This document shows, one piece after another, positions 2,238 through 19,635 of a DNA stretch of 64,000 bases. Below the pieces are notes generated by a model that saw nothing but the letters and a program-made list of their open reading frames with translations, was not told the DNA's origin and did not search any database. Source of the DNA: an uncultured Dehalococcoidia bacterium (GTDB lineage: Bacteria > Chloroflexota > Dehalococcoidia > Lucifugimonadales > UBA3495); NCBI GenBank assembly GCA_958296445.1, contig OY282565.1, positions 2,589,570-2,653,569 on the forward strand, written 5' to 3'. Position 1 is the stretch's first letter; the number at the start of each line of letters is the position of its first letter. Made by a program: the position numbers and the translations under genes.

Positions 2238-3467
2238 ATGCAACCCCTAGCCGGTATCCGCGTCCTAAGCGTAACCGTCTACCTAGCCGGCCCCTTCGCC
2301 GCCATGAACCTAGCCCGACTAGGCGCCGAAGTCATCAAAATCGAAATCCCCGGCCGCGGCGACCCGGTGCGCGGCAACGGCCCCTTCGCCGGCCCCGAAG
2401 GCACCCACCCCCGCAGCAACTCCAACGACGACCTGTCAACCCGATTCCTCAAACGCACCCAAGGCGTCAAAAGCGTCACCCTAGACCTGAAACACCCCCA
2501 AGGCAAAGACCTTTTCCTCCAACTCGCCCAAAAAAGCGACGTAGTCCTAGAAAACCTAGCCCCCGGCTCCCTCCGCCGCGCCGGGCTAGGCTACGAAGCA
2601 GTCGCCGCCGTCAACCCCGCCATCGTCTACGCCTCCATTTCCGGCTACGGACAGACCGGCCCCTACAAAGACAAACCCGCCCACGACCCCCAGATTCAAG
2701 GCATGAGCGGCCTTATGGACATCAACGGCGACGCCGACGGCCCCCCCGTCAAAGTAGGCTTCTACATCGGCGACCTAGTAACCCCAATGTTCGCCTGCTA
2801 CTCCATCCTCGCCGCCCTCCGCGAAAAAGACCGCACCGGCCAAGGCCAGTACCTAGACGTCTCTATGATGGACACCCTAGTATCCCTGATGTTTATGGAA
2901 AACCTAGAAGAAAGCATCGAAGCCGGCCTCCCCCTGCGCACCGGCAACATCAGCCGCAGCGGCCCCACCGGACTCTACGCCGCCATCGGCGGCGACATCT
3001 CCATCACCGTCACCAGCGACGACCAGTGGCGCCGCATGAGCAACGCCCTCCAATCCCCCGAACTCCTCCAAGACCCCCGCTTCGACACCTACGTAAGCCG
3101 CACCGACAACGTAGAAGCTGCCCGCCAAGAAATCCAAAACCGCATCGGCCTTATGACCATCGAGGCCGCCCTAGAACGCCTAGAAAGCCACGACGTCCCC
3201 TGCGCCCCGGTTCGCACCGCCGAACAGGTAATGAACGACCCCCACTTCTGGGAACGCGGCAGCCTAGCCCCAATGCGCCACTCCGCAATGCCCGAGCCGG
3301 TAGCCGGAGCCATAGCCGCCGGCTTCCCCGTCCGCTTCTCCGGCGGCGAACTCCCCCCGCTACCCGGCGCCCCAACCCTAGGAATGCACAACAACGAAAT
3401 CCTATCCGGCATCCTCGGCCTAACCAGCACCCAACTAGCCGAACTATCAACCCAAGGCGTAATATAA
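2238..3467 (+). CDS. CaiB/BaiF family (class III) CoA-transferase, paralog 1
   Basis: 409 aa. N-terminus LAGIRVLSVTVYLAGPFAAMNLARLGAEVIKIEIPGRGDPVRG and ...ENLAPGSLRRAGLGYEAVAAVNPAIVYASISGYGQTGPY... are hallmark family III motifs. GGAGG RBS 7 nt upstream. Confidence 0.9.
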   Translation: MQPLAGIRVLSVTVYLAGPFAAMNLARLGAEVIKIEIPGRGDPVRGNGPFAGPEGTHPRSNSNDDLSTRFLKRTQGVKSVTLDLKHPQGKDLFLQLAQKSDVVLENLAPGSLRRAGLGYEAVAAVNPAIVYASISGYGQTGPYKDKPAHDPQIQGMSGLMDINGDADGPPVKVGFYIGDLVTPMFACYSILAALREKDRTGQGQYLDVSMMDTLVSLMFMENLEESIEAGLPLRTGNISRSGPTGLYAAIGGDISITVTSDDQWRRMSNALQSPELLQDPRFDTYVSRTDNVEAARQEIQNRIGLMTIEAALERLESHDVPCAPVRTAEQVMNDPHFWERGSLAPMRHSAMPEPVAGAIAAGFPVRFSGGELPPLPGAPTLGMHNNEILSGILGLTSTQLAELSTQGVI

Positions 3468-3651: not shown

Positions 3652-3790
3652 GAGAAAATTGCGAAATTACTTCCGCCGCCTGTAACCCTGAGCAAGCCGT
3701 CTGTCATTCTGAGCAAAGCGAAGAATCTCACCTTGGGCGGTGAGACCTTTCCCTTAGCTCAGGGTGCCAAAAGGAAATTTCGCAATTTCC
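3652..3790 (+). repeat. complete copy of MITE-like hairpin repeat, family A
   Basis: Left end GAAAATTGCGAAATT (3654-3668) is the inverted complement of right end GAAATTTCGCAATTTC (3774-3789). The interior is CTGTCATTCTGAGCAAAGCGAAGAATCTCACC-TTGGGC-GGTGAGACCTTTCCCTTAGCTCAG, an imperfect long hairpin. About 30 cores of this family occur in the window. Confidence 0.8.
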
Positions 3791-5329: not shown

Positions 5330-6208
5330 ATGAAAGAAAGTATGAATGAAGTACCTGGGGCTGACATTTCGCGCTGGCTCCCAATACAAGGCTGCGTAAA
5401 CTTCCGCGACCTAGGCGGCTACCCCAACCGCCAAGGCCAAACCGTCCGCTGGCGCCGCCTATACCGCAGCGACGCCCTACAGGACTTAACCCCCCAAGAC
5501 GCCGCCTACGCCACCCAAGACCTCGACATCGGCCTAATAGTAGACCTACGCAACTCCGACGAAGCCCAGCGCGACGGAATCGGCCCCCTGCCCCAACAAG
5601 GCGCAAAATACCAACACTTCCCCCTACTGCAAGAACGCGGATTCCCCCCCTTCACCGGCAGCGACGTAGTAGAACGCCTGTCATCCACCTACCTATGGCT
5701 GCTACACAACTCCGGCCCCCGCATAGCCAACGCCATAACCGCCATAGCCAACTCCCTAAACCCCAACCACGCCCAAGAACCAACCGCCCCAGACTCCGCC
5801 AACCCCAACCCCAACCCCGACCCGGCCCAAGAACCAACCGCCGCAACCCCCGCCGCCGCCAACCCCAACCCAGCCCAACGACGCGCCGTAGTATTCCATT
5901 GCAGCGCCGGCAAAGACCGCACCGGCCTACTAGCCGCCCTAATCCTAGAAATCCTAGACGTCGACCCCCAAACCATCACCGCCGACTACCTACTAACCAA
6001 CCAAGCAGTAGACGGAATCCTGCGCCGCATCCAGGCAATGCAACCCAACGCCAACCCCACCACCCAATCCCTAGCCGCCCAACCCGCCGCCTTCCAAGCC
6101 TTCCAAAACACCCTGCGCCAGCAATACAACAACGCCGAATCCTACCTACAACACCACGGCGCAACCCCCCAAACCCTCCAAACCCTACGCCGCAACCTAC
6201 TAGAGTAG
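5330..6208 (+). CDS. tyrosine-protein phosphatase family protein (Y_phosphatase3-like)
   Basis: 292 aa with VNFRDLGGY...RLYRSDAL near the N-terminus and the CX5R active-site loop VVFHCSAGKDRTG. It contains an internal P/N/A/T-rich insert (nt about 5755-5885). Confidence 0.8.
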   Translation: MKESMNEVPGADISRWLPIQGCVNFRDLGGYPNRQGQTVRWRRLYRSDALQDLTPQDAAYATQDLDIGLIVDLRNSDEAQRDGIGPLPQQGAKYQHFPLLQERGFPPFTGSDVVERLSSTYLWLLHNSGPRIANAITAIANSLNPNHAQEPTAPDSANPNPNPDPAQEPTAATPAAANPNPAQRRAVVFHCSAGKDRTGLLAALILEILDVDPQTITADYLLTNQAVDGILRRIQAMQPNANPTTQSLAAQPAAFQAFQNTLRQQYNNAESYLQHHGATPQTLQTLRRNLLE

Positions 6209-6301: not shown

Positions 6302-7069
6302 ATGCCCAACTACATCCTAGTCCACGGCTCCGCCCACGGCTCCTGGTGCTGGCAGCGAATAACCCCCCTGCTCCAGCAACAAGGCCACACCGTAACCCCC
6401 GTTGACCTCCCCGGCAACGGACACGACGACACCCCCCTAGCCCAAGTAACCCTAGACACCTACGCCCAACACCTGTGCCGCATACTCGACGCCCACGACA
6501 ACCCCTCCATCCTAGTAGGCCACAGCCTAGGCGGCCTGTCCATCAGCCGCGCCGCCGAACTCCGCCCCCACAAAGTAGCGGTTCTAGTCTACCTAACCGC
6601 CCTGCTACTAGAAGCCAACGGCGCATTCGTCCCTACCCAATCCGCCAACCCCGACCAAGTGCGCCAAGCCCTAGAAACCCGCCCCGGTTGGAACATAGCC
6701 GACGACCTAACCTACGTAACCTACAAACCCGAACTAGCCCCCCATCGCTTCTACAACGACTGCTCCCCCGCCGACACAGCCTGGGCCCAATCAATGCTAG
6801 TCCCCCAGCCCGTAGGCCCCCTGATTTCCCCCCTGACCATCACCAACGACAACTACGGGCGCGTCCCCCGCGTATACATAGAATGTGCCCATGACAACGC
6901 CGTAACCCCGGAACGCGCCCGCGAAATGTACACCGCCCTACCTTGCGCCCAAATCATAACCATGCAAACCGGCCACTCCCCCTTCCTGTCCGCCCCCAAC
7001 CAACTAGCCCGCCACCTAAACACCCTATCCCCCTACGCCACCCCGGCGGCGGAAAGCAGGCCACTATGA
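6302..7069 (+). CDS. alpha/beta hydrolase (methylesterase/SABP2-like)
   Basis: 255 aa. ILVHGSAHGSWCWQRI... and the nucleophile elbow LVGHSLGG. The stop overlaps the next start (ATGA at 7066-7069). Confidence 0.85.
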   Translation: MPNYILVHGSAHGSWCWQRITPLLQQQGHTVTPVDLPGNGHDDTPLAQVTLDTYAQHLCRILDAHDNPSILVGHSLGGLSISRAAELRPHKVAVLVYLTALLLEANGAFVPTQSANPDQVRQALETRPGWNIADDLTYVTYKPELAPHRFYNDCSPADTAWAQSMLVPQPVGPLISPLTITNDNYGRVPRVYIECAHDNAVTPERAREMYTALPCAQIITMQTGHSPFLSAPNQLARHLNTLSPYATPAAESRPL

Positions 7070-8397
7070 CCTACGGACTCCTAAACGGCCTCCGCGTCCT
7101 AGAGCTGGGCGAATTCATCTCCGCCCCCTACTGCGCCAAGCTGCTTGCCGATATGGGCGCCCAAGTCCTGAAAATCGAGCGCCCCACCGGCGACTGGGCC
7201 CGCGACTACGGCCCATACCCCAACGACCTCCCCCACCGGGAACACAGCGGAATGTTCCTCTACCTAAACGCCAACAAACGCGGCATCACCCTAAACCTAG
7301 ACACCCCCACCGGACGCGAAATTTTCGCCAACCTGCTATCCCGTTTCGACGTCCTAGTTCACAACATCCACCCCACCGAAATGGCCCGCATCGGCCTGGA
7401 CTACCAAACCCTGTGCCACGCCCCCCCGCCGTCCCGCCCCAAAGACGGGCTAATAATGGCCTCCATAACCCCCTTCGGCCTAACCGGCCCCTACCGCAAC
7501 TGGAAAGCCTACGACATCAACCTAGCCGCCGGCGGCGGCATCTGCGAAGGCTTAGGCAGCCCCGACCGCGAACCCCTAACCTTCGGCGCCCCCGAAGTAG
7601 GCTACTTCGCCGGCGCCGCCGCCGCCTCATCCATAATAATGGCCCTGCTCGCCAACCCAGACGGCGCCGAACAAGGCCAGCACATAGACATCGCCGAAAT
7701 CGAAACAATGGCCGGCCTCTACAACGGCCCCGAAGCGTTAATGGCCGTCTACCAATGGCGCGTCACCCGCCGCACCGGACATCACGCCCTAGACTTCCCC
7801 TACCCCAACTGCATCCTACGCTGCAAAGACGGCTACATATTCGTAGGCTCCCCCGAAGGCCGCCAATGGCGCCGCCTCCTAGAGCTGATGGGCAACCCCC
7901 AATGGGCCCAAGACCCCCGCTTCCGCAACCGAACCACAATAAACAACCAATACGCCGACGAAGCAGACGCCCACCTAGAGGAATGGCTGCAACAACACAC
8001 CAAAGCCCAACTCCTAGACCTAGCCCTACAACACCGCATCCCCCTAGCCCCCGTCCGCGGCTTCAACGAAGTCCGCAACGACCCCAGCCTAACCACCCAA
8101 TTCACCCAAACCCCCACCCCCAACGCCAACCCGGAAACCGCCAACCCCAACCTAACCTCCCAATCCGCCGAAACCGCCAACCCCATAACCATCCCCGGCC
8201 CGCCCTACCAACTATCAACCCCCACCCCCACCCACCCCGGCCCAGCCGAAGGCGATGCCCCATCCGAACACCCCGAAACCCCCAACCCACCCCAACCCGC
8301 CCCAACCCTAGGCCAACACAACACCGAAATCTACACCGCCGAACTAGGCTACACCCCCCAAGAAGTAGCCCAACTATACCGCGCCGGAATTATCTAA
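7066..8397 (+). CDS. CaiB/BaiF family CoA-transferase, paralog 2
   Basis: Track ORF 6943..8397. The homologous sequence begins at the in-frame ATG 7066: MTYGLLNGLRVLELGEFISAPYCAKLLADMGAQVLKIERPTGD. It carries a P/T/N-rich insert near the C-terminus (nt about 8098-8310) before the conserved ...APTLGQHN... motif. Confidence 0.9.
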   Translation: MTYGLLNGLRVLELGEFISAPYCAKLLADMGAQVLKIERPTGDWARDYGPYPNDLPHREHSGMFLYLNANKRGITLNLDTPTGREIFANLLSRFDVLVHNIHPTEMARIGLDYQTLCHAPPPSRPKDGLIMASITPFGLTGPYRNWKAYDINLAAGGGICEGLGSPDREPLTFGAPEVGYFAGAAAASSIIMALLANPDGAEQGQHIDIAEIETMAGLYNGPEALMAVYQWRVTRRTGHHALDFPYPNCILRCKDGYIFVGSPEGRQWRRLLELMGNPQWAQDPRFRNRTTINNQYADEADAHLEEWLQQHTKAQLLDLALQHRIPLAPVRGFNEVRNDPSLTTQFTQTPTPNANPETANPNLTSQSAETANPITIPGPPYQLSTPTPTHPGPAEGDAPSEHPETPNPPQPAPTLGQHNTEIYTAELGYTPQEVAQLYRAGII

Positions 8398-9411: not shown

Positions 9412-9619
9412 CCCGCAACTAACCGGCAGGCACACCAACCGGCAGGCACAAATGACCCAACAAAAAAACCCCCAACCGCCCCCCTAGACGGCTACCGCGT
9501 AGCCCCCTACGGCGGACTGCTAACAGACGACCACCCACCCTTCAGCTTCGACCAACCGGCAGGCACAAATGACCCAGCAAAAAAACCCCCAACCCGGCCC
9601 CCTAGACGGCTACCGCGTA
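9361..9619 (+). repeat. 117-bp tandem duplication spanning a gene junction
   Basis: The 3' end of the DUF4389 gene, the intergenic spacer and the first codons of the next gene occur twice. ATGACCCA(A/G)CAAAAAAACCCCCAACC is found at 9452 and 9569. The first copy reads MTQQKNPQPPP-stop. Confidence 0.85.
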
Positions 9620-10801
9620 CTCGACTTCGGCTGGGTACTAGCCGGAGCAGTGCCCGGAATGATTCTCGCCGATATGGGCGCCGACGTAATCAAAGTCGAA
9701 ACCCGCCAGCGAATGGACTATATGCGCCTAGGCCGCCCCATCATCGGCGACACCCCCGACCCGGAACAAAACCCGATGTTCCACAACGTAAACCGCGGCA
9801 AACGCAGCATCACCCTCAACACCACCCGCCCCGAAGCCGTACAACTCGCCCGCCGTCTCGCCGCCCAATGCGACGTAGTCATCGAAAACTTTTCCCCCGG
9901 CGTAATGCAACGCCTCGGCCTAGACTACCCAACCCTAAGCCGCGACAACCCCCGCCTAGTAATGGCCTCCATCACCTCCAACGGCCAGACCGGCCCCCTG
10001 CGCGACCTCCGGGCCTACGCCCCCTCCATCGGCGCCCTGTCCGGCCTAGACAGCACAATGGGCTACCAAAACGGCCGCCCCCTAGGGCTAAAACACGCCT
10101 ACGCCGACCTCTGCGGCGCCCTCCACGCCGTATTCGCCATCACCGCCGCCCTCTACCAGCGCCGCCGCACCAACCAAGGCCAATACATAGACCTCTCAAT
10201 GCTACGCGCCACCGTAGCCACAATGGGCGCCGGCCTGATGGAATACGAACTAACCGGCCGCGTCCCCCAGCCCCAAGGCAACCACGACCCAACAATGGCC
10301 CCCTACGGCAACTACCCCTGCCAAGGCCAAGACCAATGGGTATCCATAGCCGTCCGCACCCAAGCCGAATGGCAAGGACTCCTAGAAGCAATGGGCCATC
10401 CCGATTGGGCCAACCAACCTCCCTTCGCCAGCCGCTACGCCCGCCTAAACCACCGCCAACAACTAGACGCCCACCTATCCCAATGGACCCAAACCCTCCC
10501 ACCCTGGGAAGCCGCCCAACTCCTACAAACCCACGGCGTAGCCGCCTTCCCCGTCCTAGACGCCGAAGCCCGCCTATTCAACCCCCACTTCCAAGAACGC
10601 GGCCTATACTCCGAAATAGAACACCCCGCCCTAGGCGCCGAACCCATCTTCAACCTAATGTGGCAACTAAGCCGCACCCCGCCCCAAATCCGCCGCCACG
10701 CCCCCCAACTAGGCGAACACAACCGCCAAGTATTCTGCCACCTCCTAAACCTACCCGAATCCGAACTAACCCGCCTACAACAAAACCAAGTAATCTGGTA
10801 A
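9569..10801 (+). CDS. CaiB/BaiF family CoA-transferase, paralog 3
   Basis: 410 aa. LDGYRVLDFGWVLAGAVPGMILADMGADVIKVE..., ...ENFSPGVMQRLGLDYPTL..., ...APQLGEHN... Confidence 0.9.
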   Translation: MTQQKNPQPGPLDGYRVLDFGWVLAGAVPGMILADMGADVIKVETRQRMDYMRLGRPIIGDTPDPEQNPMFHNVNRGKRSITLNTTRPEAVQLARRLAAQCDVVIENFSPGVMQRLGLDYPTLSRDNPRLVMASITSNGQTGPLRDLRAYAPSIGALSGLDSTMGYQNGRPLGLKHAYADLCGALHAVFAITAALYQRRRTNQGQYIDLSMLRATVATMGAGLMEYELTGRVPQPQGNHDPTMAPYGNYPCQGQDQWVSIAVRTQAEWQGLLEAMGHPDWANQPPFASRYARLNHRQQLDAHLSQWTQTLPPWEAAQLLQTHGVAAFPVLDAEARLFNPHFQERGLYSEIEHPALGAEPIFNLMWQLSRTPPQIRRHAPQLGEHNRQVFCHLLNLPESELTRLQQNQVIW

Positions 10802-11902: not shown

Positions 11903-13135
11903 ATGACCACCCCCAACGAAAGCCAGCGCGTAGCCGAAACCCTCCCCGAAGTAGACAACATCTCCCCCGACGCCATCGCCCGCGCCAAAGCAATGATCGG
12001 CACCCGCCTCCGCACCGAAAACTTCGTCCGCGACGCCTCCCTAGGCGCCCTCCTCAACTTCGTCAACGGCATCGGCGACACCAACCCCATCTTCCGCGAC
12101 CAAGAATACGCCGCCTACAGCAAATACGGCTCCATCATCGCCCACCCCTGCGCCCCCTATATGCGCCACTGGTCAGGCCGCACCCGCTGGGGCCTGCCCG
12201 GCGTCCACGGCTTCTTCGCCGGCAACGACTGGGAATTTTTCCGCAACATCCGCCCCGGCGACGCCATAAACTGCGTCGAGCGCGTACTCGACGTCCAAGA
12301 ACGCCAAAGCCGCTACTCCCAAACCCTAGTCATCCAATACGTCGAAACCATCTACACCAACCAGCGCGACGAACTAATCGCCCGCGTAGTCGGCTGGTGC
12401 ACCCGCCACCAGCGCCGCGCCTCCCGACAGCGCGGCAAATACGCCGACGTCCCCCGCCGCCACGAATACCCACCCGACCAACTAGAAGCCATAGACCAGC
12501 AGGTACTAGCCGAAAAAGCCCGCGGCGCCCAAACCCGCTACTACGAAGACACCCACATCGGCGACCGCCTAGAACCCGTAGTCCGCGGCCCCCTGTCCCT
12601 ACAAGACGTCTCCGCCTTCCTAGTAGGCACCGGACGCTCCAGCGCCCACGGCGTCCTGCTCCGCGAAGCCCTCCGCCACCCCGACCACTTCTTCCGCAAC
12701 CCCGAAGCCGGTGGCGGCCTAGAATACACCGGCATCGGACACCTCCGCGACTCCGTAGCCGAAGCCGTAGGCGTCCCCGGCGCCTACGACTACGGCCCCC
12801 AGCGCGTATCCTGGATGGCAACCCTGCTCACCAACTGGATGGGCGACGACGCCTTCCTGAAACGCCTGCGCGTCGAATGTCGCCGCTTCAACGTCTACGG
12901 CGACACCCAATGGTGCCAAGGCCGCGTAACCGGCAAGCGCATCCACAACGGCGCCCCCCTCATAGACCTAGAAATCTGGGCCGAAAACCAGCGCGGCGAA
13001 ACAACCGCCCCCGGCCAGGCCACCATAATGCTCCCCTCCCGAGACCCCCGCCTACCCTGGTTCACCGACGGCCAAGCCCTAAACCTACGCAACACACCCC
13101 CCACCAAAAACACCCCGCCAATACTCCCCGAGTAA
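11903..13135 (+). CDS. MaoC-like (double hotdog) acyl-CoA hydratase/dehydratase
   Basis: 410 aa. The N-terminal half (...FVRDASLGALLNFVNGIGDTNPIFRDQEYAA...IAHPCAP...) looks like the MaoC_dehydrat_N/FAS1-DH-like module. The C-terminal half (...NVYGDTQWCQGRVTGKR...IDLEIWAENQRGETTAPGQATIMLPSR) looks like a MaoC hotdog. GGAGA RBS. Confidence 0.75.
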   Translation: MTTPNESQRVAETLPEVDNISPDAIARAKAMIGTRLRTENFVRDASLGALLNFVNGIGDTNPIFRDQEYAAYSKYGSIIAHPCAPYMRHWSGRTRWGLPGVHGFFAGNDWEFFRNIRPGDAINCVERVLDVQERQSRYSQTLVIQYVETIYTNQRDELIARVVGWCTRHQRRASRQRGKYADVPRRHEYPPDQLEAIDQQVLAEKARGAQTRYYEDTHIGDRLEPVVRGPLSLQDVSAFLVGTGRSSAHGVLLREALRHPDHFFRNPEAGGGLEYTGIGHLRDSVAEAVGVPGAYDYGPQRVSWMATLLTNWMGDDAFLKRLRVECRRFNVYGDTQWCQGRVTGKRIHNGAPLIDLEIWAENQRGETTAPGQATIMLPSRDPRLPWFTDGQALNLRNTPPTKNTPPILPE

Positions 13136-13138
13136 TCC

Positions 13139-13550
13139 AAAAATCACGAAATCACCCCCACCCCCCATCACCCTAAACAAAGCCCTATCATCCTAAGCAA
13201 AACCCTGCCACCCTGAACAAAGCCATGTCATCCTAAGCAAAGCCCTGTCATCCTGAACAAAGCCCTATCATCCTGACAAAGCCCTGCCACCCTCAGCAAA
13301 ACCCTATCATCCTGACAAAGCCCTGCCACCCTAAACAAAGCCCTGCCACCCTCAGCAAAACCCTATCATCCTGACAAAGCCCTGCCACCCTCAGCAAAAC
13401 CCTATCATCCTGACAAAGCCCTGCCACCCTAAACAAAGCCCTGCCACCCTCAGCAAAGCCCTGTCATTCTGAGCAAAGCGAAGAATCTCACCTTGGCCAG
13501 TGAGACCCTTCCCTTAGCTCAGAGTGCCAAAGGGGAATTTCGCAAGAAAG
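13139..13550 (+). repeat. giant family A element with about 15 tandem 21-22-bp head repeats
   Basis: Left end AAAAATCACGAAATCAC. It is followed by a run of degenerate CAAAGCCCTGTCATCCTGA-type units, then the core CTGTCATTCTGAGCAAAGCGAAGAATCTCACC...GCTCAG, and the right end GGGGAATTTCGCAAG. Confidence 0.75.
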
Positions 13551-13571
13551 AACGGCAGCAGGTGAATTACT

Positions 13572-14081
13572 ATGGGCGAAAAACTAATCATCAGGTACGA
13601 CGAAATAGGGAGCTTCCTGTTCCTAGAAGTGTGTCATCCCTACGCAGAACAAGATTCCGATATGATTGACGACGCGGTAGTAGCCAGGTTCAACCTGAAA
13701 ACGGGCGAAATGGAGTCCATAGAAATCCTGTTCTTTGAATCCTGGCTGAAAAAAGAAGGCGAAATCCGCATCCCCGTCACCGCCGCCCTGCACCCCAACA
13801 ACACGTCCGCCCCCGAGTCATTGCCCCACCCGTCCGCAACAAATACCCCACTGACCATCAAATACAACCACCCCACCGACACCCTAACCATAAACCAACG
13901 CCACCCCCACCCCAACCAAACCAAAACCCAGCTAACCAAAGGCATATCAGCCCGAACCAACCCCGCAACCAACCAAATCGAAAACCTAGAAATCCAAAAC
14001 TTCAAAGCCCGCGCCAAAAATGACGGCGAAATCCGCATCCCCATCAACGCCACCCTACACCCCGCCAACCCCACCAAGTAG
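13572..14081 (+). CDS. tandem DUF2283-like protein (antitoxin-like), copy A1
   Basis: 169 aa. Two modules with the DUF2283-like pattern (LIIRYDEIGSFLFLEV...MESIEILFF and LTIKYNHPTDTLTINQ...IENLEIQNF) joined by a P/T/N-rich linker. GCAGGTG RBS. Confidence 0.6.
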   Translation: MGEKLIIRYDEIGSFLFLEVCHPYAEQDSDMIDDAVVARFNLKTGEMESIEILFFESWLKKEGEIRIPVTAALHPNNTSAPESLPHPSATNTPLTIKYNHPTDTLTINQRHPHPNQTKTQLTKGISARTNPATNQIENLEIQNFKARAKNDGEIRIPINATLHPANPTK

Positions 14082-14093
14082 CGGCGGCAAACA

Positions 14094-14408
14094 ATGCCCG
14101 AATACCACCCCTGCCCCTACCTAGGCGCCGCCGTTGAAATCACCGATGAACGTTACGCCCACGTTCTGAAAGGACATCCAGAGTTGGCGCCGGTCTACTG
14201 GGAGCGCGTGGCTGAAACCCTCGCCGCCCCCAACCGGGTGCTTCGCAACGACACCACCAATAGCGGCACACTATTCCTGCGGTGGTATGATGACTTGGAC
14301 AAAATGGTTGTCGCCGTAGTCATTACCGACCCAAACCGCCACTGGCTGATCACCGCCTACATCACCGGAAATATGCCAAGAGGTGAAATCCTATGGCAAC
14401 AGGACTAA
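14094..14408 (+). CDS. small conserved protein, toxin-like (H-x3-HPE ... TAY motif family), copy B1
   Basis: 104 aa: ...VEITDERYAHVLKGHPELAPVYWERVAETLAAPNRVLRND...MVVAVVITDPNRHWLITAYITG... Its 3' end overlaps the next gene by 16 nt. Function is inferred only from size, motif pattern and pairing with DUF2283-like genes. Confidence 0.6.
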   Translation: MPEYHPCPYLGAAVEITDERYAHVLKGHPELAPVYWERVAETLAAPNRVLRNDTTNSGTLFLRWYDDLDKMVVAVVITDPNRHWLITAYITGNMPRGEILWQQD

Positions 14409-14926
14409 CACTCGAATACAGCAACCAAGCCGACGTGCTCTGCATCCTGAAATGCCCCCCATACATCGGCCAACAAACCACTGAAATAGACGACTTCGTC
14501 ATAGCCAGAATGAACCCCAAAATGCCGGAGATCGAGTACCTAGAAATCCTGCTCTTTTTCCGCCGCCTCGAGCAATACGGCCAACTGAACCTCCCAACCG
14601 CCGCCACCCTGCACCCCGCCAACACGCCCACACCCGAAGCACCAACCCCGCCATCCGCAAAGAATACCCCACTGACCATCAAATACAACCACCCCACCGA
14701 CACCCTAACCATAAACCAACGCCACCCAAACCCAAGCCAAACCAAAACCCAGCTAACCAAAGGCGTATCAGCCCGAACCAACCCCGCAACCAACCAAATC
14801 GAAACCCTAGAAATCCAAAACTTCAAAGCCCGCGCCAAAAAAGACTGCGAAATCCGCATCCCCATCAACGCCACCCTCCGCCCCGCCTACCCCACCGAAA
14901 ATATCCCACCCACACCCCCCAAGTAG
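14393..14926 (+). CDS. tandem DUF2283-like protein, copy A2
   Basis: 177 aa. AGAGGTGA RBS inside the end of B1. The C-terminal module is nearly the same as in A1 (PLTIKYNHPTDTLTINQRHPNP...). Confidence 0.6.
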   Translation: MATGLTLEYSNQADVLCILKCPPYIGQQTTEIDDFVIARMNPKMPEIEYLEILLFFRRLEQYGQLNLPTAATLHPANTPTPEAPTPPSAKNTPLTIKYNHPTDTLTINQRHPNPSQTKTQLTKGVSARTNPATNQIETLEIQNFKARAKKDCEIRIPINATLRPAYPTENIPPTPPK

Positions 14927-14938
14927 CGGCGGCAGACA

Positions 14939-15253
14939 ATGCCGGAATACCACCCCTGCCCCTACTTGGGCACCGCCGTTGAAATCACCGACGAGCGATA
15001 CGCCCACGTTCTCAAAGGACATCCAGAGTTGGCGCCGGTCTACTGGGAGCGCGTGGCTGAAACCCTCGCCGCCCCCAACCGGGTGCTTCGCAGCGACACC
15101 ACCAATAGCGGCACACTATTCCTGCGGTGGTATGATGACTTGGACAAAATGGTTGTCGCCGTAGTCATTACCGACCCAAACCGCCACTGGCTGATCACCG
15201 CCTACATCACCGGAAATATGCCAAGAGGTGAAATCCTATGGCAACAGGACTAA
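14939..15253 (+). CDS. toxin-like small protein, copy B2
   Basis: 104 aa, differs from B1 at only two residues (G12T, N52S). It lies exactly 845 nt downstream of B1. Confidence 0.6.
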   Translation: MPEYHPCPYLGTAVEITDERYAHVLKGHPELAPVYWERVAETLAAPNRVLRSDTTNSGTLFLRWYDDLDKMVVAVVITDPNRHWLITAYITGNMPRGEILWQQD

Positions 15254-15756
15254 CACTCGAATACAGCAACCAAGCCGATGTGCTCTGCATCCTGAAATGC
15301 CCCCCATACATCGGCCAACAAACCACTGAAATAGACGACTTCGTCATAGCCAGAATGAACCCCAAAATGCCGGAGATCGAGTACCTAGAAATCCTGCTCT
15401 TTTTCCGCCGCCTCGAGCAATACGGCCAACTGAACCTGCCAGCCGTCGCCGCCCTGCACCCCGCCAACACGCCCACCCCCGATGCATTGCCCCCACCAGC
15501 CGCAACGAATACGCCCATAACCATCAAATACAACCAACCCACCGACACCCTAACCATAAACCAACGCCACCCAAACCCCAACCAAACCAAAACCCAGCTA
15601 ACCAAAGGCATATCAGCCCGAACCAACCCCGCAACCAACCAAATCGAAAACCTAGAAATCCAAAACTTCAAAGCCCGCCTAAAAACACACGGCGAAATCA
15701 TCCTACCCATCAACGCCACCCTCCGCCCCATCAAACACGCCGCAGCCCCCAACTAA
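15238..15756 (+). CDS. tandem DUF2283-like protein, copy A3
   Basis: 172 aa. The first 68 aa are identical to A2 and the C-terminal half is diverged. It lies 845 nt downstream of A2. Confidence 0.6.
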   Translation: MATGLTLEYSNQADVLCILKCPPYIGQQTTEIDDFVIARMNPKMPEIEYLEILLFFRRLEQYGQLNLPAVAALHPANTPTPDALPPPAATNTPITIKYNQPTDTLTINQRHPNPNQTKTQLTKGISARTNPATNQIENLEIQNFKARLKTHGEIILPINATLRPIKHAAAPN

Positions 15757-15775: not shown

Positions 15776-16141
15776 ATGGGCCGAACATTCGTACAAGGAA
15801 CCATCAGCGGCCCCGCCGACACCCGGAGCTACGATTTCTTTGTCGACACCGGCTCCGCCCTTATGGGCCTGCCAATGCAAGAAATCGAAGCCCTAGGACT
15901 AGAGCCCGTCGCCAACGGGAAAAGGTGGTTCATCACCGCCAGCGGCCGGATGCAATTCGACACCTACCACATCAAAGGCGAAATATGGGGCAAAGGATTC
16001 GGAGCAATGGTCGCCCCCTGCCCCGTCCCCCTAGTAGGCTACGAAACGCTCCAAACAATGCGACTGCGAGTCAACCCGGTCAGCGAGGAAATAGAGGAAG
16101 TCCCGGACGAAGTAATCAACCACCCACCTTATTTCTTATGA
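15776..16141 (+). CDS. single-domain retropepsin-like (clan AA) aspartic protease
   Basis: 121 aa. ...SYDFFVDTGSALMGLPMQEIEALGLEP... has a canonical D-T-G-S motif, with ...PLVGYETLQTMRLRVNP at the C-terminus. GGAGA RBS. The last codons (EVINHPPYFL) are supplied by a family B repeat flank. Confidence 0.65.
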   Translation: MGRTFVQGTISGPADTRSYDFFVDTGSALMGLPMQEIEALGLEPVANGKRWFITASGRMQFDTYHIKGEIWGKGFGAMVAPCPVPLVGYETLQTMRLRVNPVSEEIEEVPDEVINHPPYFL

Positions 16142-16221
16142 TACGACCACACCCACACCCGTAGGGGCGCACAGCCGTGCGCCCTATCCCCAACAAACCA
16201 CTCCACCCCAGGAAAAAAACA

Positions 16222-17448
16222 ATGACAACACCCACCCCAGAAACCAACACCCCCAACGCCCTAACCAACCTCCGCGTCCTAGAGCTCGCCGGAATGGTAG
16301 CCGCCCCCTACTGCGGCAAACTCCTGTCCTCCCTAGGCGCCGACGTCATAAAAATCGAACCCCCCAAAACCGGTGACCCATCCCGCCGCCTAGGCCCCTT
16401 CCCCAACGACGCCCCCCACCCGGAACGCAGCGGCCTGTTCCTCCACCTCAACACCGGCAAGCGCGGCATCACCCTAGACCCCGACGACCCCCAAGGCCGC
16501 CAAATCCTGCAACAACTATCCGCCAAAGCCGACATAATCCTACACGACTCCCCGCCCGCCCAAGCCGCCGCCCGCCGGCTCGAGCGGGAACCCCTGGCCG
16601 CCGTCAACCCCGGCCTGATTATCGCCGCCGTAACCCCCTACGGCTCCAGCGGCCCCAACGCCGGATTCGCCGCCCACGACATCAACATATTCCACGCCGG
16701 GGGCGAGGGCAACCTGCTCCCCAACGGCCTAGCCCTGGATCTGTTCCCCCAGCGCCCCCCCATCACCGCCGGGGCTATGATGGCCTCCTACCAAGGCGGC
16801 CTAACCGCCGCCGTCGGCCTGATCGCCGCCCTAATCGCCCGCAACAACGGCGCCCCCGGCCAGACCGTAGACTGCTCCATGCAAGAAGCCCAGCTCGCCA
16901 TCGGCTACCTCCCCATCCAGCGCCTAGAAGCCGAAGGCTTCGTCGAAACCCGCCACTCCCGCTTCTTCCGCATAGGCGGCGTAATGCCCGCCGCCGACGG
17001 CTACATAGAACTGCTAACCCTAGAACCCCGCCAATGGCAAGGGCTGTACCGGCTGCTAGGCGAACCCGAATGGGCCGCCCCCGGCAAATTCCAGGCCCCC
17101 GCCACCCACGGCCCAGCCATCAACCAAAACCTGCGCCAATGGACTGCCCAACACACCCGCGAATGGCTATACCAACAAGGCCAGGCCCACGGCGTCCCCA
17201 TCGCCCCCTACCTAACCCCCGCCGAAGTCTTCAACAGCCCCCAACAACGCCAGCGCAACTTTTTCGCCCCAGTCCCCCACCCCCAAACCGACGACTACGA
17301 CTACCCCGGCCAACCCTTCCGCATGAGCCAAACGCCCCCCACCCAACACCGCGCCCCCCTCCTAGGCGAGCACAACCCCCAAATCTACCGCGAGCAAGGC
17401 TACACCCCCCAACAACAAGCAACCCTAGCCCGCGCCGAAGTAATCTAA
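16222..17448 (+). CDS. CaiB/BaiF family CoA-transferase, paralog 4
   Basis: Track ORF 16177..17448, whose first 15 codons come from the repeat. An in-frame ATG at 16222 follows AGGAAAAAAAC. ...LTNLRVLELAGMVAAPYCGKLLSSLGADVIKIEPPKTGDP... Confidence 0.9.
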   Translation: MTTPTPETNTPNALTNLRVLELAGMVAAPYCGKLLSSLGADVIKIEPPKTGDPSRRLGPFPNDAPHPERSGLFLHLNTGKRGITLDPDDPQGRQILQQLSAKADIILHDSPPAQAAARRLEREPLAAVNPGLIIAAVTPYGSSGPNAGFAAHDINIFHAGGEGNLLPNGLALDLFPQRPPITAGAMMASYQGGLTAAVGLIAALIARNNGAPGQTVDCSMQEAQLAIGYLPIQRLEAEGFVETRHSRFFRIGGVMPAADGYIELLTLEPRQWQGLYRLLGEPEWAAPGKFQAPATHGPAINQNLRQWTAQHTREWLYQQGQAHGVPIAPYLTPAEVFNSPQQRQRNFFAPVPHPQTDDYDYPGQPFRMSQTPPTQHRAPLLGEHNPQIYREQGYTPQQQATLARAEVI

Positions 17449-17449
17449 G

Positions 17450-18390
17450 AAAATCACGAAACCACATCCGCCGCCTGTCCCCCCAACCAAATACCCGTCA
17501 CTCCGACCAACCATCTGTCACCCCAACCAAATACCCGTCACTCAGGGCAACCATCTGTCACCCCAACCAAATACCTGTCATTCAGGGCAACCATCTGTCA
17601 CCCCTACCAAATACCTGTCATTCCAACCAACCATCTGTCATTCTGAGCAAAGCGAAGAATCCCACCATACGCCGCCAGACCCTTTCCCAACCCGTAGGGG
17701 CGCACAGCCGTGCGCCCCCAACCCAATCAACCACCCGCCTTATTCCCATCACCAAGAGCGCCAAAACATCTATCACCCCAACCAAATACCCGCCATCCCA
17801 ACCAAATCCCGCCACCCCAACCAAATCCCGCCACCCCAACCAAATACCCATCATTCCAACCAAATACCCGTCATTCCGGGCAACTATCTGTCATTCTGAG
17901 CAAAGCGAAGAATCCCACCATACGCCGCCAGACCTTTCCCTTAGCTATCTGTCACCCCAACCAAATACCCATCATTCCAACCAACCATCTGTCATTCCGG
18001 GCAACTATCTGTCATTCTGAGCAAAGCGAAGAATCCCACCATACGCCGCCAGACCTTTCCCTTAGCTATCTGTCACCCCAACCAAATACCCGTCACCCCA
18101 ACCAACCATCTGTCATTCTGAGCAAAGCGAAGAATCCCACCTTGCGCCGTGAGACCTTTCCCTTAGCTATCTGTCATTCCGACCAACCATCTGTCATTCT
18201 GAGCAAAGCGAAGAATCCCACCATACGCCGCCAGACCTTTCCCTTAGCTATCTGTCATTCCGACCAACCATCTGTCATTCTGAGCAAAGCGAAGAATCCC
18301 ACCATACGCCGCCAGACCCTTTCCCAACCCGTAGGGGCGCACAGCCCTACGCCCCCAACGCAACAAACGAAAATCCCGCAACCTTCTAGA
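17450..18390 (+). repeat. 940-bp intergenic block made entirely of family A heads/cores (6 cores) and family B hairpins
   Basis: CTGTCATTCTGAGCAAAGCGAAGAATCCCACC occurs at about 17633, 17888, 18009, 18109, 18191 and 18271. Each is preceded by runs of degenerate 20-22-bp head units (CTGTCACCCCAACCAAATACC...). GTAGGGGCGCACAGCC occurs at 17694 and 18331. Confidence 0.85.
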
Positions 18391-18399
18391 GGCCATCCA

Positions 18400-19635
18400 A
18401 TGACCAAAACCAACCCCCCAGCCCCCACCGGCCCCCTAACCGGAATCCGCGTAGCCGACTTCTCCGTACACGCCGCCGGCCCCTTCGCCGGGCTAATGCT
18501 CGCCCAAATGGGCGCCCAAGTCATCAAAATCGAAAGCTCCGCCCGCCTCGACATCACCCGCCGCCCCCATACAATGTACGGCAAGCCACCCTCCAGCTTC
18601 GAGCAAATCAACGCCAACAAAATGTCCGTCTGCCTAAACCTAAAAGAACCCCGCGCCATCGAACTCGCCCTAGAACTGGTAGCCGCCTCCGACCTAGCCC
18701 TAGAAAACTTCCGCCCCGGCGTCCTCCAACGGCTAGGGCTAGGCTACGAAGCGATGCGCCAAGCCCGCCCCGACATCATCCTAGTCTCCCTCTCATCCAA
18801 CGGACAGACCGGCCCCGAAAGCCACTACGCCGGTTACGCCCCAATGTTCGCCGCCCTAGGCGGACTAGGCCACCTCACCGGCTACCCCGACGCCCCACCC
18901 GTAGAGCTCCGCCACGCAATGGATCACACCGGCGGAATGTTAGCCGCCTTCGCCGCCGTAGCCGCCCTAGCCGCCCAACAGCGCACCGGCCAAGGCCAGC
19001 ACATAGACGTCTCCGTAAGAGACCTAGCAACAGCCTTCATCGGCCCCGAACTGCTCGACGTAGCAATGAACTCCCGCCAGGCCCACCGGCAAGGCAACCG
19101 CCCCCCCGCCACCCAAGACGGCGCCGCCGCCCCCCAAGGCGTCTACCGCTGCCAAGGCCAAGACCAATGGATCAGCATATCCATATCATCCGAAACCCAA
19201 TGGCAAAACTTCATCGCCGCCCTAGACCACCCCGATTGGGCCAACAGCGACCAATTCGGCGACGCCTACCGCCGCTGGAAAAAACGCGACCAACTAGACC
19301 CCCTAATCGAATCCTGGACATCCCAACAAACCCCAACCCAAGCCACCCAAAAGCTACAAACCCACGGCGTACCCGCCCACCCCTCCCTATCCCCCGACGC
19401 CCTAATGCAAGACCCCCACCTCCAGGCCCGAAACGCCTTCCCCACCGTCCACAACCCCAACACCGGCGAGCAACAGCGTGCCGTAACCCCCCCATGGCGC
19501 TTCTCCCAAACCCCCGCCCAAATCAACCAATGGACACCCACCCTAGGCCAACACAACCAACAAGTATTCACCAAAATCCTAAACCTAACCCCCAACCAAG
19601 TCCACGAACTAGAGCAAGCCAAAATAATCTGGTAA
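18400..19635 (+). CDS. CaiB/BaiF family CoA-transferase, paralog 5
   Basis: Track ORF 17710..19635, but its first 230 codons are translated repeats. An in-frame ATG at 18400 follows AGAGG. MTKTNPPAPTGPLTGIRVADFSVHAAGPFAGLMLAQMGAQVIKIE... Confidence 0.9.
   Translation: MTKTNPPAPTGPLTGIRVADFSVHAAGPFAGLMLAQMGAQVIKIESSARLDITRRPHTMYGKPPSSFEQINANKMSVCLNLKEPRAIELALELVAASDLALENFRPGVLQRLGLGYEAMRQARPDIILVSLSSNGQTGPESHYAGYAPMFAALGGLGHLTGYPDAPPVELRHAMDHTGGMLAAFAAVAALAAQQRTGQGQHIDVSVRDLATAFIGPELLDVAMNSRQAHRQGNRPPATQDGAAAPQGVYRCQGQDQWISISISSETQWQNFIAALDHPDWANSDQFGDAYRRWKKRDQLDPLIESWTSQQTPTQATQKLQTHGVPAHPSLSPDALMQDPHLQARNAFPTVHNPNTGEQQRAVTPPWRFSQTPAQINQWTPTLGQHNQQVFTKILNLTPNQVHELEQAKIIW

Follow-up and report, generated by a model that had tools for sequence, protein, structure and literature searches.

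Tandem copies of a putative toxin-first gene pair, a BECR-fold protein and its two-module DUF2283-like partner, inside a metabolic operon of a Dehalococcoidia bacterium

Introduction

What do five small, alternating genes encode inside a metabolic operon of an uncultured Dehalococcoidia bacterium, and how did they come to be repeated there? The genes lie at 13572-15756, on the + strand, of a 64,000-nucleotide (nt) stretch of contig OY282565.1 (assembly GCA_958296445.1, positions 2,589,570 to 2,653,569), hereafter the window. An initial annotation, made from the sequence and its open reading frames (ORFs), described an amplified two-gene cassette: a toxin-like protein, B, overlapping a partner, A, that is built of two modules resembling the domain DUF2283. 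We consider it fairly probable that the array consists of copies of a toxin-first module of the type II toxin-antitoxin (TA) kind, in which a PBECR-type ribonuclease (RNase) toxin is paired with a DUF2283 inhibitor that forms, in this lineage, a tandem-domain antitoxin.

BECR toxins, toxin-first coupling, TA arrays and orphan antitoxins are already known. The B/A family itself, a start codon placed in a tryptophan codon of the toxin, and a two-module antitoxin whose halves evolve separately appear to be undescribed; the initial annotation knew of no such system, and we likewise found no description of the pair in the searchable literature.

Results

Two overlapping pairs and an orphan partner

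The ORF map and the sequence give the gene order A1-B1-A2-B2-A3, as annotated, all on the + strand. A1 (13572-14081, 169 amino acids, aa) is an orphan two-module partner. B1 (14094-14408, 104 aa) is followed by its partner A2 (14393-14926, 177 aa), and B2 (14939-15253, 104 aa), the second B copy, by A3 (15238-15756, 172 aa). The two B proteins are nearly identical, differing in two residues (A12T and N52S); since six codon differences are synonymous and only two are not, both copies are under purifying selection. In both pairs B overlaps A by 16 nt, and the Shine-Dalgarno sequence AGAGGTGA stands 7 nt before each A start. The repeat unit had been put at 845 base pairs (bp), which is right for the second spacing; the first is 821 bp.

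B genes are paired with DUF2283 genes beyond this genome

The same arrangement occurs in a Blastocatellia genome (L007), where a 108-aa B homologue, lying between methionine-synthase genes, overlaps a 79-aa DUF2283 gene by 16 nt. A scan with this sister B subfamily gave 80 metagenome loci, on which the following counts are based. A partner was detected for 58 of the 80 B genes, at exactly -16 nt in 56 of these 58; of the 22 other B genes, 17 have a partner whose ORF call is extended upstream and whose domain match starts at the canonical position. Among the 76 B genes whose downstream sequence is long enough, the proposed adjacency is thus conserved in about 75, always with the 16-nt overlap. 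Adjacent, co-oriented, co-translated small genes with conserved linkage, a hallmark of type II TA modules, are found both in the window and in these loci. The canonical partner starts with ATG in 68 loci and with GTG in 8, and an SD-like (Shine-Dalgarno-like) motif precedes it in 79 of the 80. All 72 complete partners are single-module proteins. The median isoelectric points (pI) of the two proteins, 8.8 for B and 4.5 for A, give them complementary charges. No third conserved gene was present in the 80 loci, which show only antisense shadow ORFs and diverse flanks.

The overlap is fixed at the level of codons. The partner ATG is made of the last base of one codon and the first two bases of B's invariant tryptophan codon, after which four codons, including the stop, complete the B gene. 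With the start of A embedded at Trp101 in this way (that of A2 lies inside B1's), the overlap is held at 16 nt, and the Shine-Dalgarno sequence of A falls in B's Gly97-Glu98 codons. We infer from this overlap that synthesis of A is coupled to translation of B. In L007, the B-DUF2283 pair is followed at 5604-6135 by a second small pair, made of a 90-aa ORF and a UPF0175-family gene; both are wedged between methionine-synthase-related genes, as TA-like modules nested in a metabolic cluster.

Close relatives of the window B are few, with only 20 in a set of 5.8 billion proteins. A profile search of 1.84 billion cluster representatives extended the family to 984 members at E<=1e-3 (335 at E<=1e-10), nearly all of them solo proteins of about 105 aa.

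B is predicted to adopt a BECR fold of the PBECR type

The initial annotation had raised a nuclease fold of the RelE/barnase superfold for B, and a BECR-type fold is supported by domain matches, a structure model, viral structural matches and conserved residues. Sixteen of the 19 B family members match Pfam PBECR2 (PF18810) at E<=0.01, the best with E 6.8e-6, and one relative (P0018) carries a precomputed match to the same entry; B also matches Pfam MuF_C weakly. In the AlphaFold2 (AF2) model of B (predicted local distance difference test, pLDDT, 91.8), two short strands precede two helices (residues 18-27 and 29-44) and five strands, a b-b-a-a-b5 topology in which the BECR core of the PBECR clade, an N-terminal helix and then four to five strands, is present. 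When this model was compared by Foldseek with predicted viral structures, it matched phage minor-capsid, MuF-C and polyvalent-protein domains, with E from 1.6e-5 to 7.5e-4 and template modelling (TM) scores of 0.66-0.76. The top full-length match in the PDB was the 119-residue chain C of 7M5F (probability 0.87, TM 0.52, E 0.26), which, judged by its length, is the Serratia BECR-fold CdiA-CT toxin domain of PMC8616854. Its authors regard it as a nuclease domain of the BECR fold, in which an acidic immunity protein covers the candidate site His/Glu/His/Arg (PMC8616854). PDB sequence searches with B and with its profile returned nothing significant.

Across about 40 diverse sequences, residues C7, E19, R20, H28, W84, T87 and W101 of B are invariant or nearly so, and H23 is nearly invariant, being replaced in a few family members. 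The two histidines are spaced as H-x4-HPE (H23...H28), one residue wider than the H-x3-HPE first read. H23 lies in the helix 18-27, and T87 in the fourth post-helix strand (82-91). As PBECR domains are defined by a His within the N-terminal helix together with a Ser/Thr in strand 4 (PMC5512222), the helix His and strand-4 Thr of B fit the definition. PBECR domains are also defined as being encoded by phages or conjugative elements, either solo or as part of polyvalent proteins; here the genes are chromosomal and sit inside a metabolic operon. A phage origin was sought without result, as no B relatives were found in IMG/VR viral contigs. On the evidence of its model, B is best described as a stand-alone PBECR-type BECR-fold protein with an intact-looking candidate active site, and B1 and B2 as predicted RNase toxins.

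A is a tandem of two DUF2283-like modules

As annotated, each A protein consists of two DUF2283-like modules: its halves can be aligned gap-free with one another and with DUF2283 proteins of a single module. In A1, an acidic N-module (13572-13799, pI 4.5) is joined by a P/T/N-rich linker (13800-13841) to a basic C-module (13842-14081, pI 10.1); the modules of A2 are at 14393-14620 (pI 4.6) and 14663-14926 (pI 9.9). Among the window modules, the N-module of A1 alone matches Pfam DUF2283 (PF10049; threshold 23 bits), at 17.1 bits and E 0.006. Single-module partners of B homologues reach 37.9 bits, above the threshold, and 20 of 25 aligned modules match the family; the window modules share 37-46% identity with these partners (E 1e-13 to 1e-15). 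We therefore classify A, by sequence similarity, as DUF2283-like. The AF2 model of A2 (pLDDT 81, predicted TM score, pTM, 0.77) shows two five-strand/helix/two-strand units and a disordered linker at residues 82-89, and the high pTM suggests that the modules pack together.

Double-module partners occur only in this Dehalococcoidia lineage. Their basic C-module (pI about 10), extreme in composition, is confined to the window and to L008, its closest relative; the C-modules of other genomes range from acidic to neutral. We take this as a sign that constraint has been relaxed and that the module has drifted with the G-poor coding strand of the genome. Over the whole window (1-64000), the GC skew is -0.32 (as low as -0.57 in 1-kb windows) and the AT skew +0.23, and almost every long ORF is on the + strand; on such a C/A-rich, G-poor coding strand, codons starting with G (Gly, Ala, Val, Asp, Glu) are depleted in weakly constrained sequence, for example in the C-modules of A. 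The array had been described as less C-skewed than its surroundings. That is true of B (GC skew -0.15), of the N-modules of A (-0.05 to -0.34) and of the downstream protease gene (-0.11), but not of the C-modules (-0.64 to -0.67), the most C/A-skewed sequence of the region.

A literature search on COG5428/YuzE brought up nothing relevant. The "DUF2283" of PMC4755241 designates FseA-type activators of integrative and conjugative elements, which have a different architecture and probably belong to a different DUF, and was set aside.

The first module tracks the B type, the second the genome

B proteins about 70-100% identical to the window B are followed by N-modules of the A2 type (type 2), and those about 50-55% identical by N-modules of the A1 type (type 1); B1 is of type 2. 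Outside the window, type-1 N-modules always follow a type-1 B. Accordingly, the matrices of B identity and N-module identity are correlated (Mantel r = 0.65, p = 0.0005).

The C-modules behave otherwise. For two pairs of L006, identity is 53% between the B proteins and 45% between the N-modules, against 92% between the C-modules. Likewise, in the window, the N-modules of A1 and A2 are only about 40% identical, and the three C-modules 84-88%. The second module of A had been called diverged, which holds only relative to the converted tract described below. Judging from these alignments, C-modules follow the genome and are homogenised within each. In L010 and L011, intact type-2 B genes have single-module A partners, so the N-module should suffice, with the C-module as an accessory. 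The array, first described as amplified, is not simply so: it combines two specificity types with an orphan partner and a pair that has undergone conversion.

A deleted B gene and a converted pair

A1 carries a type-1 N-module, yet no B gene lies upstream of it. At 13549-13587 (+), the sequence reads ...RTAAGELLWAKN-stop and keeps a GGTGA Shine-Dalgarno motif and a 16-nt overlap with the A1 start codon. This 13-codon remnant matches type-1 B proteins of L009, L014 and L012 at their C-termini (70-80% over 10-11 aa), and is thus the 3' stump of a deleted type-1 B gene. As the stump is common to L008 and the window, so is the deletion. In place of the rest of the first B, at 13177-13487 (+), where relatives have a B gene, there is now a dispersed intergenic element together with 15 tandem copies of a 20-nt unit related to it.

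The element, CTGTCATTCTGAGCAAAGCGAAGAATC, has 27 copies in the 64-kb window, of which 22 are exact; all are on the + strand, a striking bias. It sits between most genes (e.g. at 3701, 8615, 11587, 13461, 25958, 52193 and 59599) and forms local tandem clusters, with six copies at 17635-18298. The copy at 13461-13487 ends the 20-nt array, which has about 15 units at 13177-13479 in the window and about 5 at the same place in L008, and so has expanded recently. We also considered a type III TA system with ToxIN-like RNA repeats and rejected it: the 20-nt array precedes the orphan A1 rather than a B gene, derives from the dispersed element and has no Rfam match.

The third pair has a different history. 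The tract 15014-15437 (+) is a copy of 14169-14592, with 2 mismatches in 424 nt and diverged flanks, which confirms the near-identical portion. It spans the body of B and nearly the whole N-module of A, and around and outside it units 2 and 3 differ at 73 aligned positions. The N-module of A3 is 96% identical to that of A2; the orthologue of its C-module is found in the third A of L008. The third position of L008 is taken by a truncated B and an N-module, both type-1-like, and the collinear alignment of the two genomes breaks at about 15010-15346, where the window holds a near-perfect copy of pair 2. Comparison with L008 thus bears out the initial suggestion of gene conversion layered on an older duplication. 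In the simplest reading, a single tract of gene conversion, acquired in the window lineage, took the place of both a decayed toxin and its cognate antitoxin module. If B is toxic, such co-conversion is the only way in which the replacement could have been tolerated.

One chromosomal site with zero to three pairs

The closest genomes are metagenome-assembled genomes of Dehalococcoidia, in which the site lies between genes for a FAS1-type dehydratase and a family III CoA-transferase. Here L095 and L101-L108 have the protease gene and no pair; L001-L004, L010 and L011 have one pair; L009, L012 and L013 have two, and L006 has three; L008, like the window, has A-B-A-B-A. Copy number at a fixed site thus ranges over 0, 1, 2 or 3 pairs among close relatives, a behaviour like that of selfish elements. 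Scars of duplication are visible as a 3' fragment of the dehydratase gene between the pairs of L013, a 5' fragment of the protease gene in L009 and, in L006, a dehydratase stop region copied into every unit. These scars indicate that the arrays arose by unequal recombination. Decay of B with retention of A is recurrent: besides the stump of the window, L008 has an 83-aa B, L009 a frameshifted one and L013 one of 43 aa.

A retropepsin-like mini-protease ORF (15776-16141, +, 121 aa, with DTGS at residues 24-27) follows A3 after 19 nt, one fewer than first counted. It scores 25.8 bits to gag-asp_proteas (threshold 28.2) and 23.6 to Asp_protease_2 (threshold 24.3), and most of its homologues carry precomputed matches to both. 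The initial annotation noted it next to the array. Since the gene is present without B and A in relatives and absent from 79 of the 80 wider B-family loci, it belongs to a dehydratase-protease-CoA-transferase operon and is only a neighbour of the cassette. A role within the cassette, such as cleaving the P/T-rich linker of A, was rejected because the protease exists without B and A, and double-module A proteins exist without it in L001-L004. The protease (121-136 aa, DTGS) is conserved in the order dehydratase-protease-CoA-transferase; it overlaps the start of the CoA-transferase gene in L101-L103, the overlap being 4 nt in some relatives.

The neighbourhood holds five family III CoA-transferase paralogues (2247-3464, 7063-8394, 9524-10795, 16177-17448 and 18397-19629) and a FAS1/MaoC-type dehydratase (11903-13135) within 20 kb. 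Together with DUF4389, rhomboid and DUF4286 genes, this set is syntenic across many Dehalococcoidia contigs. At 17034-19635, long apparent ORFs cross clusters of the dispersed element and contain repeated "SVILSKAKNPTIRRQTFPLAICH" peptides before a genuine CoA-transferase domain; their N-terminal extensions are probably not coding.

Discussion

We now propose how such a module would work and how the array would have arisen. B would be a small metal-independent RNase from the phage-BECR/PBECR2 branch, with a candidate site formed by H23 and H28 of the helix, E19 and R20, and T87 of strand 4. A, a member of the DUF2283 family, would be the protein inhibitor of B and would be translated by coupling. 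Indirect evidence for a toxin neutralised by its partner comes from the decay of B where A persists, from the co-variation of B with the N-module and from the complementary charges of the two proteins. In this Dehalococcoidia lineage A was presumably duplicated internally. Its acidic N-module, which co-varies with the type of B and alone partners intact B proteins in relatives, would serve as the toxin-specific neutraliser; the C-module would be an accessory copy that probably substitutes, within the same chain, for the other subunit of a DUF2283 dimer and is kept uniform within each genome by recombination. The cassettes may then have multiplied by unequal recombination at their one site in the dehydratase/CoA-transferase operon. 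In the window lineage, the first toxin would have been deleted, leaving its stump and the orphan antitoxin A1, and the decayed third pair overwritten when the toxin body and cognate N-module of pair 2 were converted together.

Several observations weigh against the TA interpretation. The PBECR2 matches of B1 (22.0 bits) and B2 (21.7 bits), with E 2e-4, do not reach the gathering threshold of 27.1 bits. None of 13 TA toxin families of the RelE/ParE superfamily (PMC11980606) is matched by the window B, for which a Pfam scan at E<=1 gives only PBECR2 and MuF_C, and the fold search of the PDB gave nothing at E 1e-3 or better. Most RNase toxins are not acidic, whereas the window B is (pI 5.2). PADLOC had no match, and PHROGs and NCBIfam no informative one, for A or B. 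For A, a PDB search with the DUF2283 profile found no solved analogue of the fold, and Foldseek of the two-module model against the PDB gave noise. Pfam and NCBIfam scans of A showed no helix-turn-helix (HTH), ribbon-helix-helix (RHH), AbrB or similar DNA-binding domain, whereas a DNA-binding, autoregulating antitoxin is usual in type II systems; no promoter-like site was detected upstream on the + strand. The cassette is embedded in a metabolic operon on the same strand, and no separate promoter for it could be detected, so that it may serve the host. Finally, the cyanobacterial plasmids L109 (NZ_CP042327.1) and L110 (CP101716.1) carry DUF2283 homologues with no B gene. These proteins, 60% identical to the Blastocatellia partner and located in islands with BrnT/BrnA, VapC, MNT/HEPN and BREX genes, could be orphan antitoxins, or could serve another toxin as partners.

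B might instead be a non-catalytic BECR-fold protein that binds RNA or protein, like the inactive MuF-C of phage Mu, and form with A a stable complex of regulatory or structural function and no toxicity. Inactive PBECR domains do exist (PMC5512222), the best structural matches of B are MuF-type minor capsid proteins, in line with its weak MuF_C match, and the acidity of the window B and the occasional replacement of H23 fit as well. We nevertheless find this unlikely: H28, E19, R20 and T87 are invariant across the diverse sequences, B and A have opposite charges (basic and acidic) in the wider family, and repeated pseudogenisation of B with A retained is the pattern expected if B is harmful without A. 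More doubtful still is a phage-defence role by abortive infection, in place of addiction or stabilisation. Infection would free B from A, B would shut down translation, and arrays of different specificity types would respond to more kinds of trigger. Toxins of the BECR class have been widely linked to defence (PMC11980606), the DUF2283 homologues of cyanobacterial plasmids share islands with BREX and TA genes, and the locus is a hot spot variable in copy number and type; against this, PADLOC found no match, the array is flanked by metabolic and not defence genes, no sensor component is conserved, and the viral contigs lack relatives that could have hinted at an arms race.

The metabolic setting itself invites another explanation, that B and A are housekeeping factors of the dehydratase/CoA-transferase operon, for instance an RNase processing the polycistronic mRNA and its regulator. 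The pair does keep the same position and strand inside this operon in many Dehalococcoidia genomes, and the + strand has no promoter-like or terminator-like site. Yet there are relatives that have the same operon and no pair, the number of pairs ranges from 0 to 3, B is in some cases a pseudogene, and in other phyla the contexts are unrelated (methionine-synthase genes in Blastocatellia, varied flanks over the 80 loci), so that we give this explanation little credence. As for the array being an assembly artefact, a repeat collapsed or mis-joined into apparent tandem copies, near-identical tracts of 424 nt can indeed mislead assemblers. We hold it to be very improbable, given the 73 differences between the units, the recurrence of the order A-B-A-B-A-protease in an independent 2.3-Mb contig (L008) and the arrays of two to three pairs in L006, L009, L012 and L013.

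DUF2283 proteins are often annotated beside small RelE-like DUF4258 toxins, which would likewise pair a BECR toxin with a DUF2283 protein. B, however, has no DUF4258 match even at E up to 1. DUF4258 is listed as antitoxin-first with an unknown target (PMC11980606), whereas the pair described here is toxin-first with a fixed 16-nt overlap. The toxin-first type II systems HigBA, BrnTA and MqsRA (PMC11980606) resemble it in layout, having a small BECR-type toxin upstream of a coupled small acidic partner, and in their patchy distribution, multiple copies, orphan antitoxins and decayed toxins; here, the putative antitoxin is an all-beta-plus-one-helix DUF2283 domain without HTH or RHH.

In fold, B is closest to the PBECR2 and MuF-C domains (PF18810, PF18819; PMC5512222), with which it shares the helix-then-five-strand BECR core, the His of the N-terminal helix and the Thr of strand 4, and to which it gives weak but consistent hidden Markov model matches and significant structural ones. 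Unlike them, it is a solo 104-aa chromosomal protein and not a domain of a virion-packaged polyvalent protein; it also has two extra N-terminal strands, an invariant Cys7 and a constant DUF2283 partner, stays below the Pfam threshold and is not represented in IMG/VR contigs. The CdiA-CT(BWH57)/CdiI complex (7M5F; PMC8616854), the best PDB match of the B model, has the BECR fold and the His/Glu/His/Arg candidate site, and its acidic immunity protein covers an electropositive face of the toxin (PMC8616854). That match is weak and comes with no sequence similarity to B; moreover, CdiA-CT is the tip of a large secreted effector, and CdiI is not a DUF2283 protein. With tandem arrays of TA paralogues and orphan antitoxins, the locus shares local duplication, insulated specificity types and loss of toxins with the antitoxin kept. 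It differs in that the antitoxin is itself tandemly duplicated, its second module evolving in concert within the genome and its first tracking the toxin.

A bolder proposal, which we consider speculative and unlikely, is that the N-module insulates each pair while the C-module, identical within a genome, lets paralogous antitoxins hetero-oligomerise or share a partner, thereby coupling otherwise orthogonal TA pairs in a single regulated network. B/DUF2283 would then be a new widespread family of RNase TA systems, spanning the 984 representative clusters, in which the antitoxin's start codon is hard-wired in the invariant Trp codon of the toxin.

Should B prove to be an active RNase that DUF2283 neutralises, a sizeable domain of unknown function would acquire a role, that of an antitoxin or an immunity protein, and the BECR repertoire would gain a toxin-first TA family with about 1,000 clusters (representatives at 50% identity). 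Present views of TA biology would be extended to a new family, not changed. The Dehalococcoidia arrays would then be a natural experiment on the diversification of TA paralogues at one chromosomal site, where co-evolution of toxin and first module, concerted evolution of the second module, and replacement of a decayed toxin by co-conversion are all visible together.

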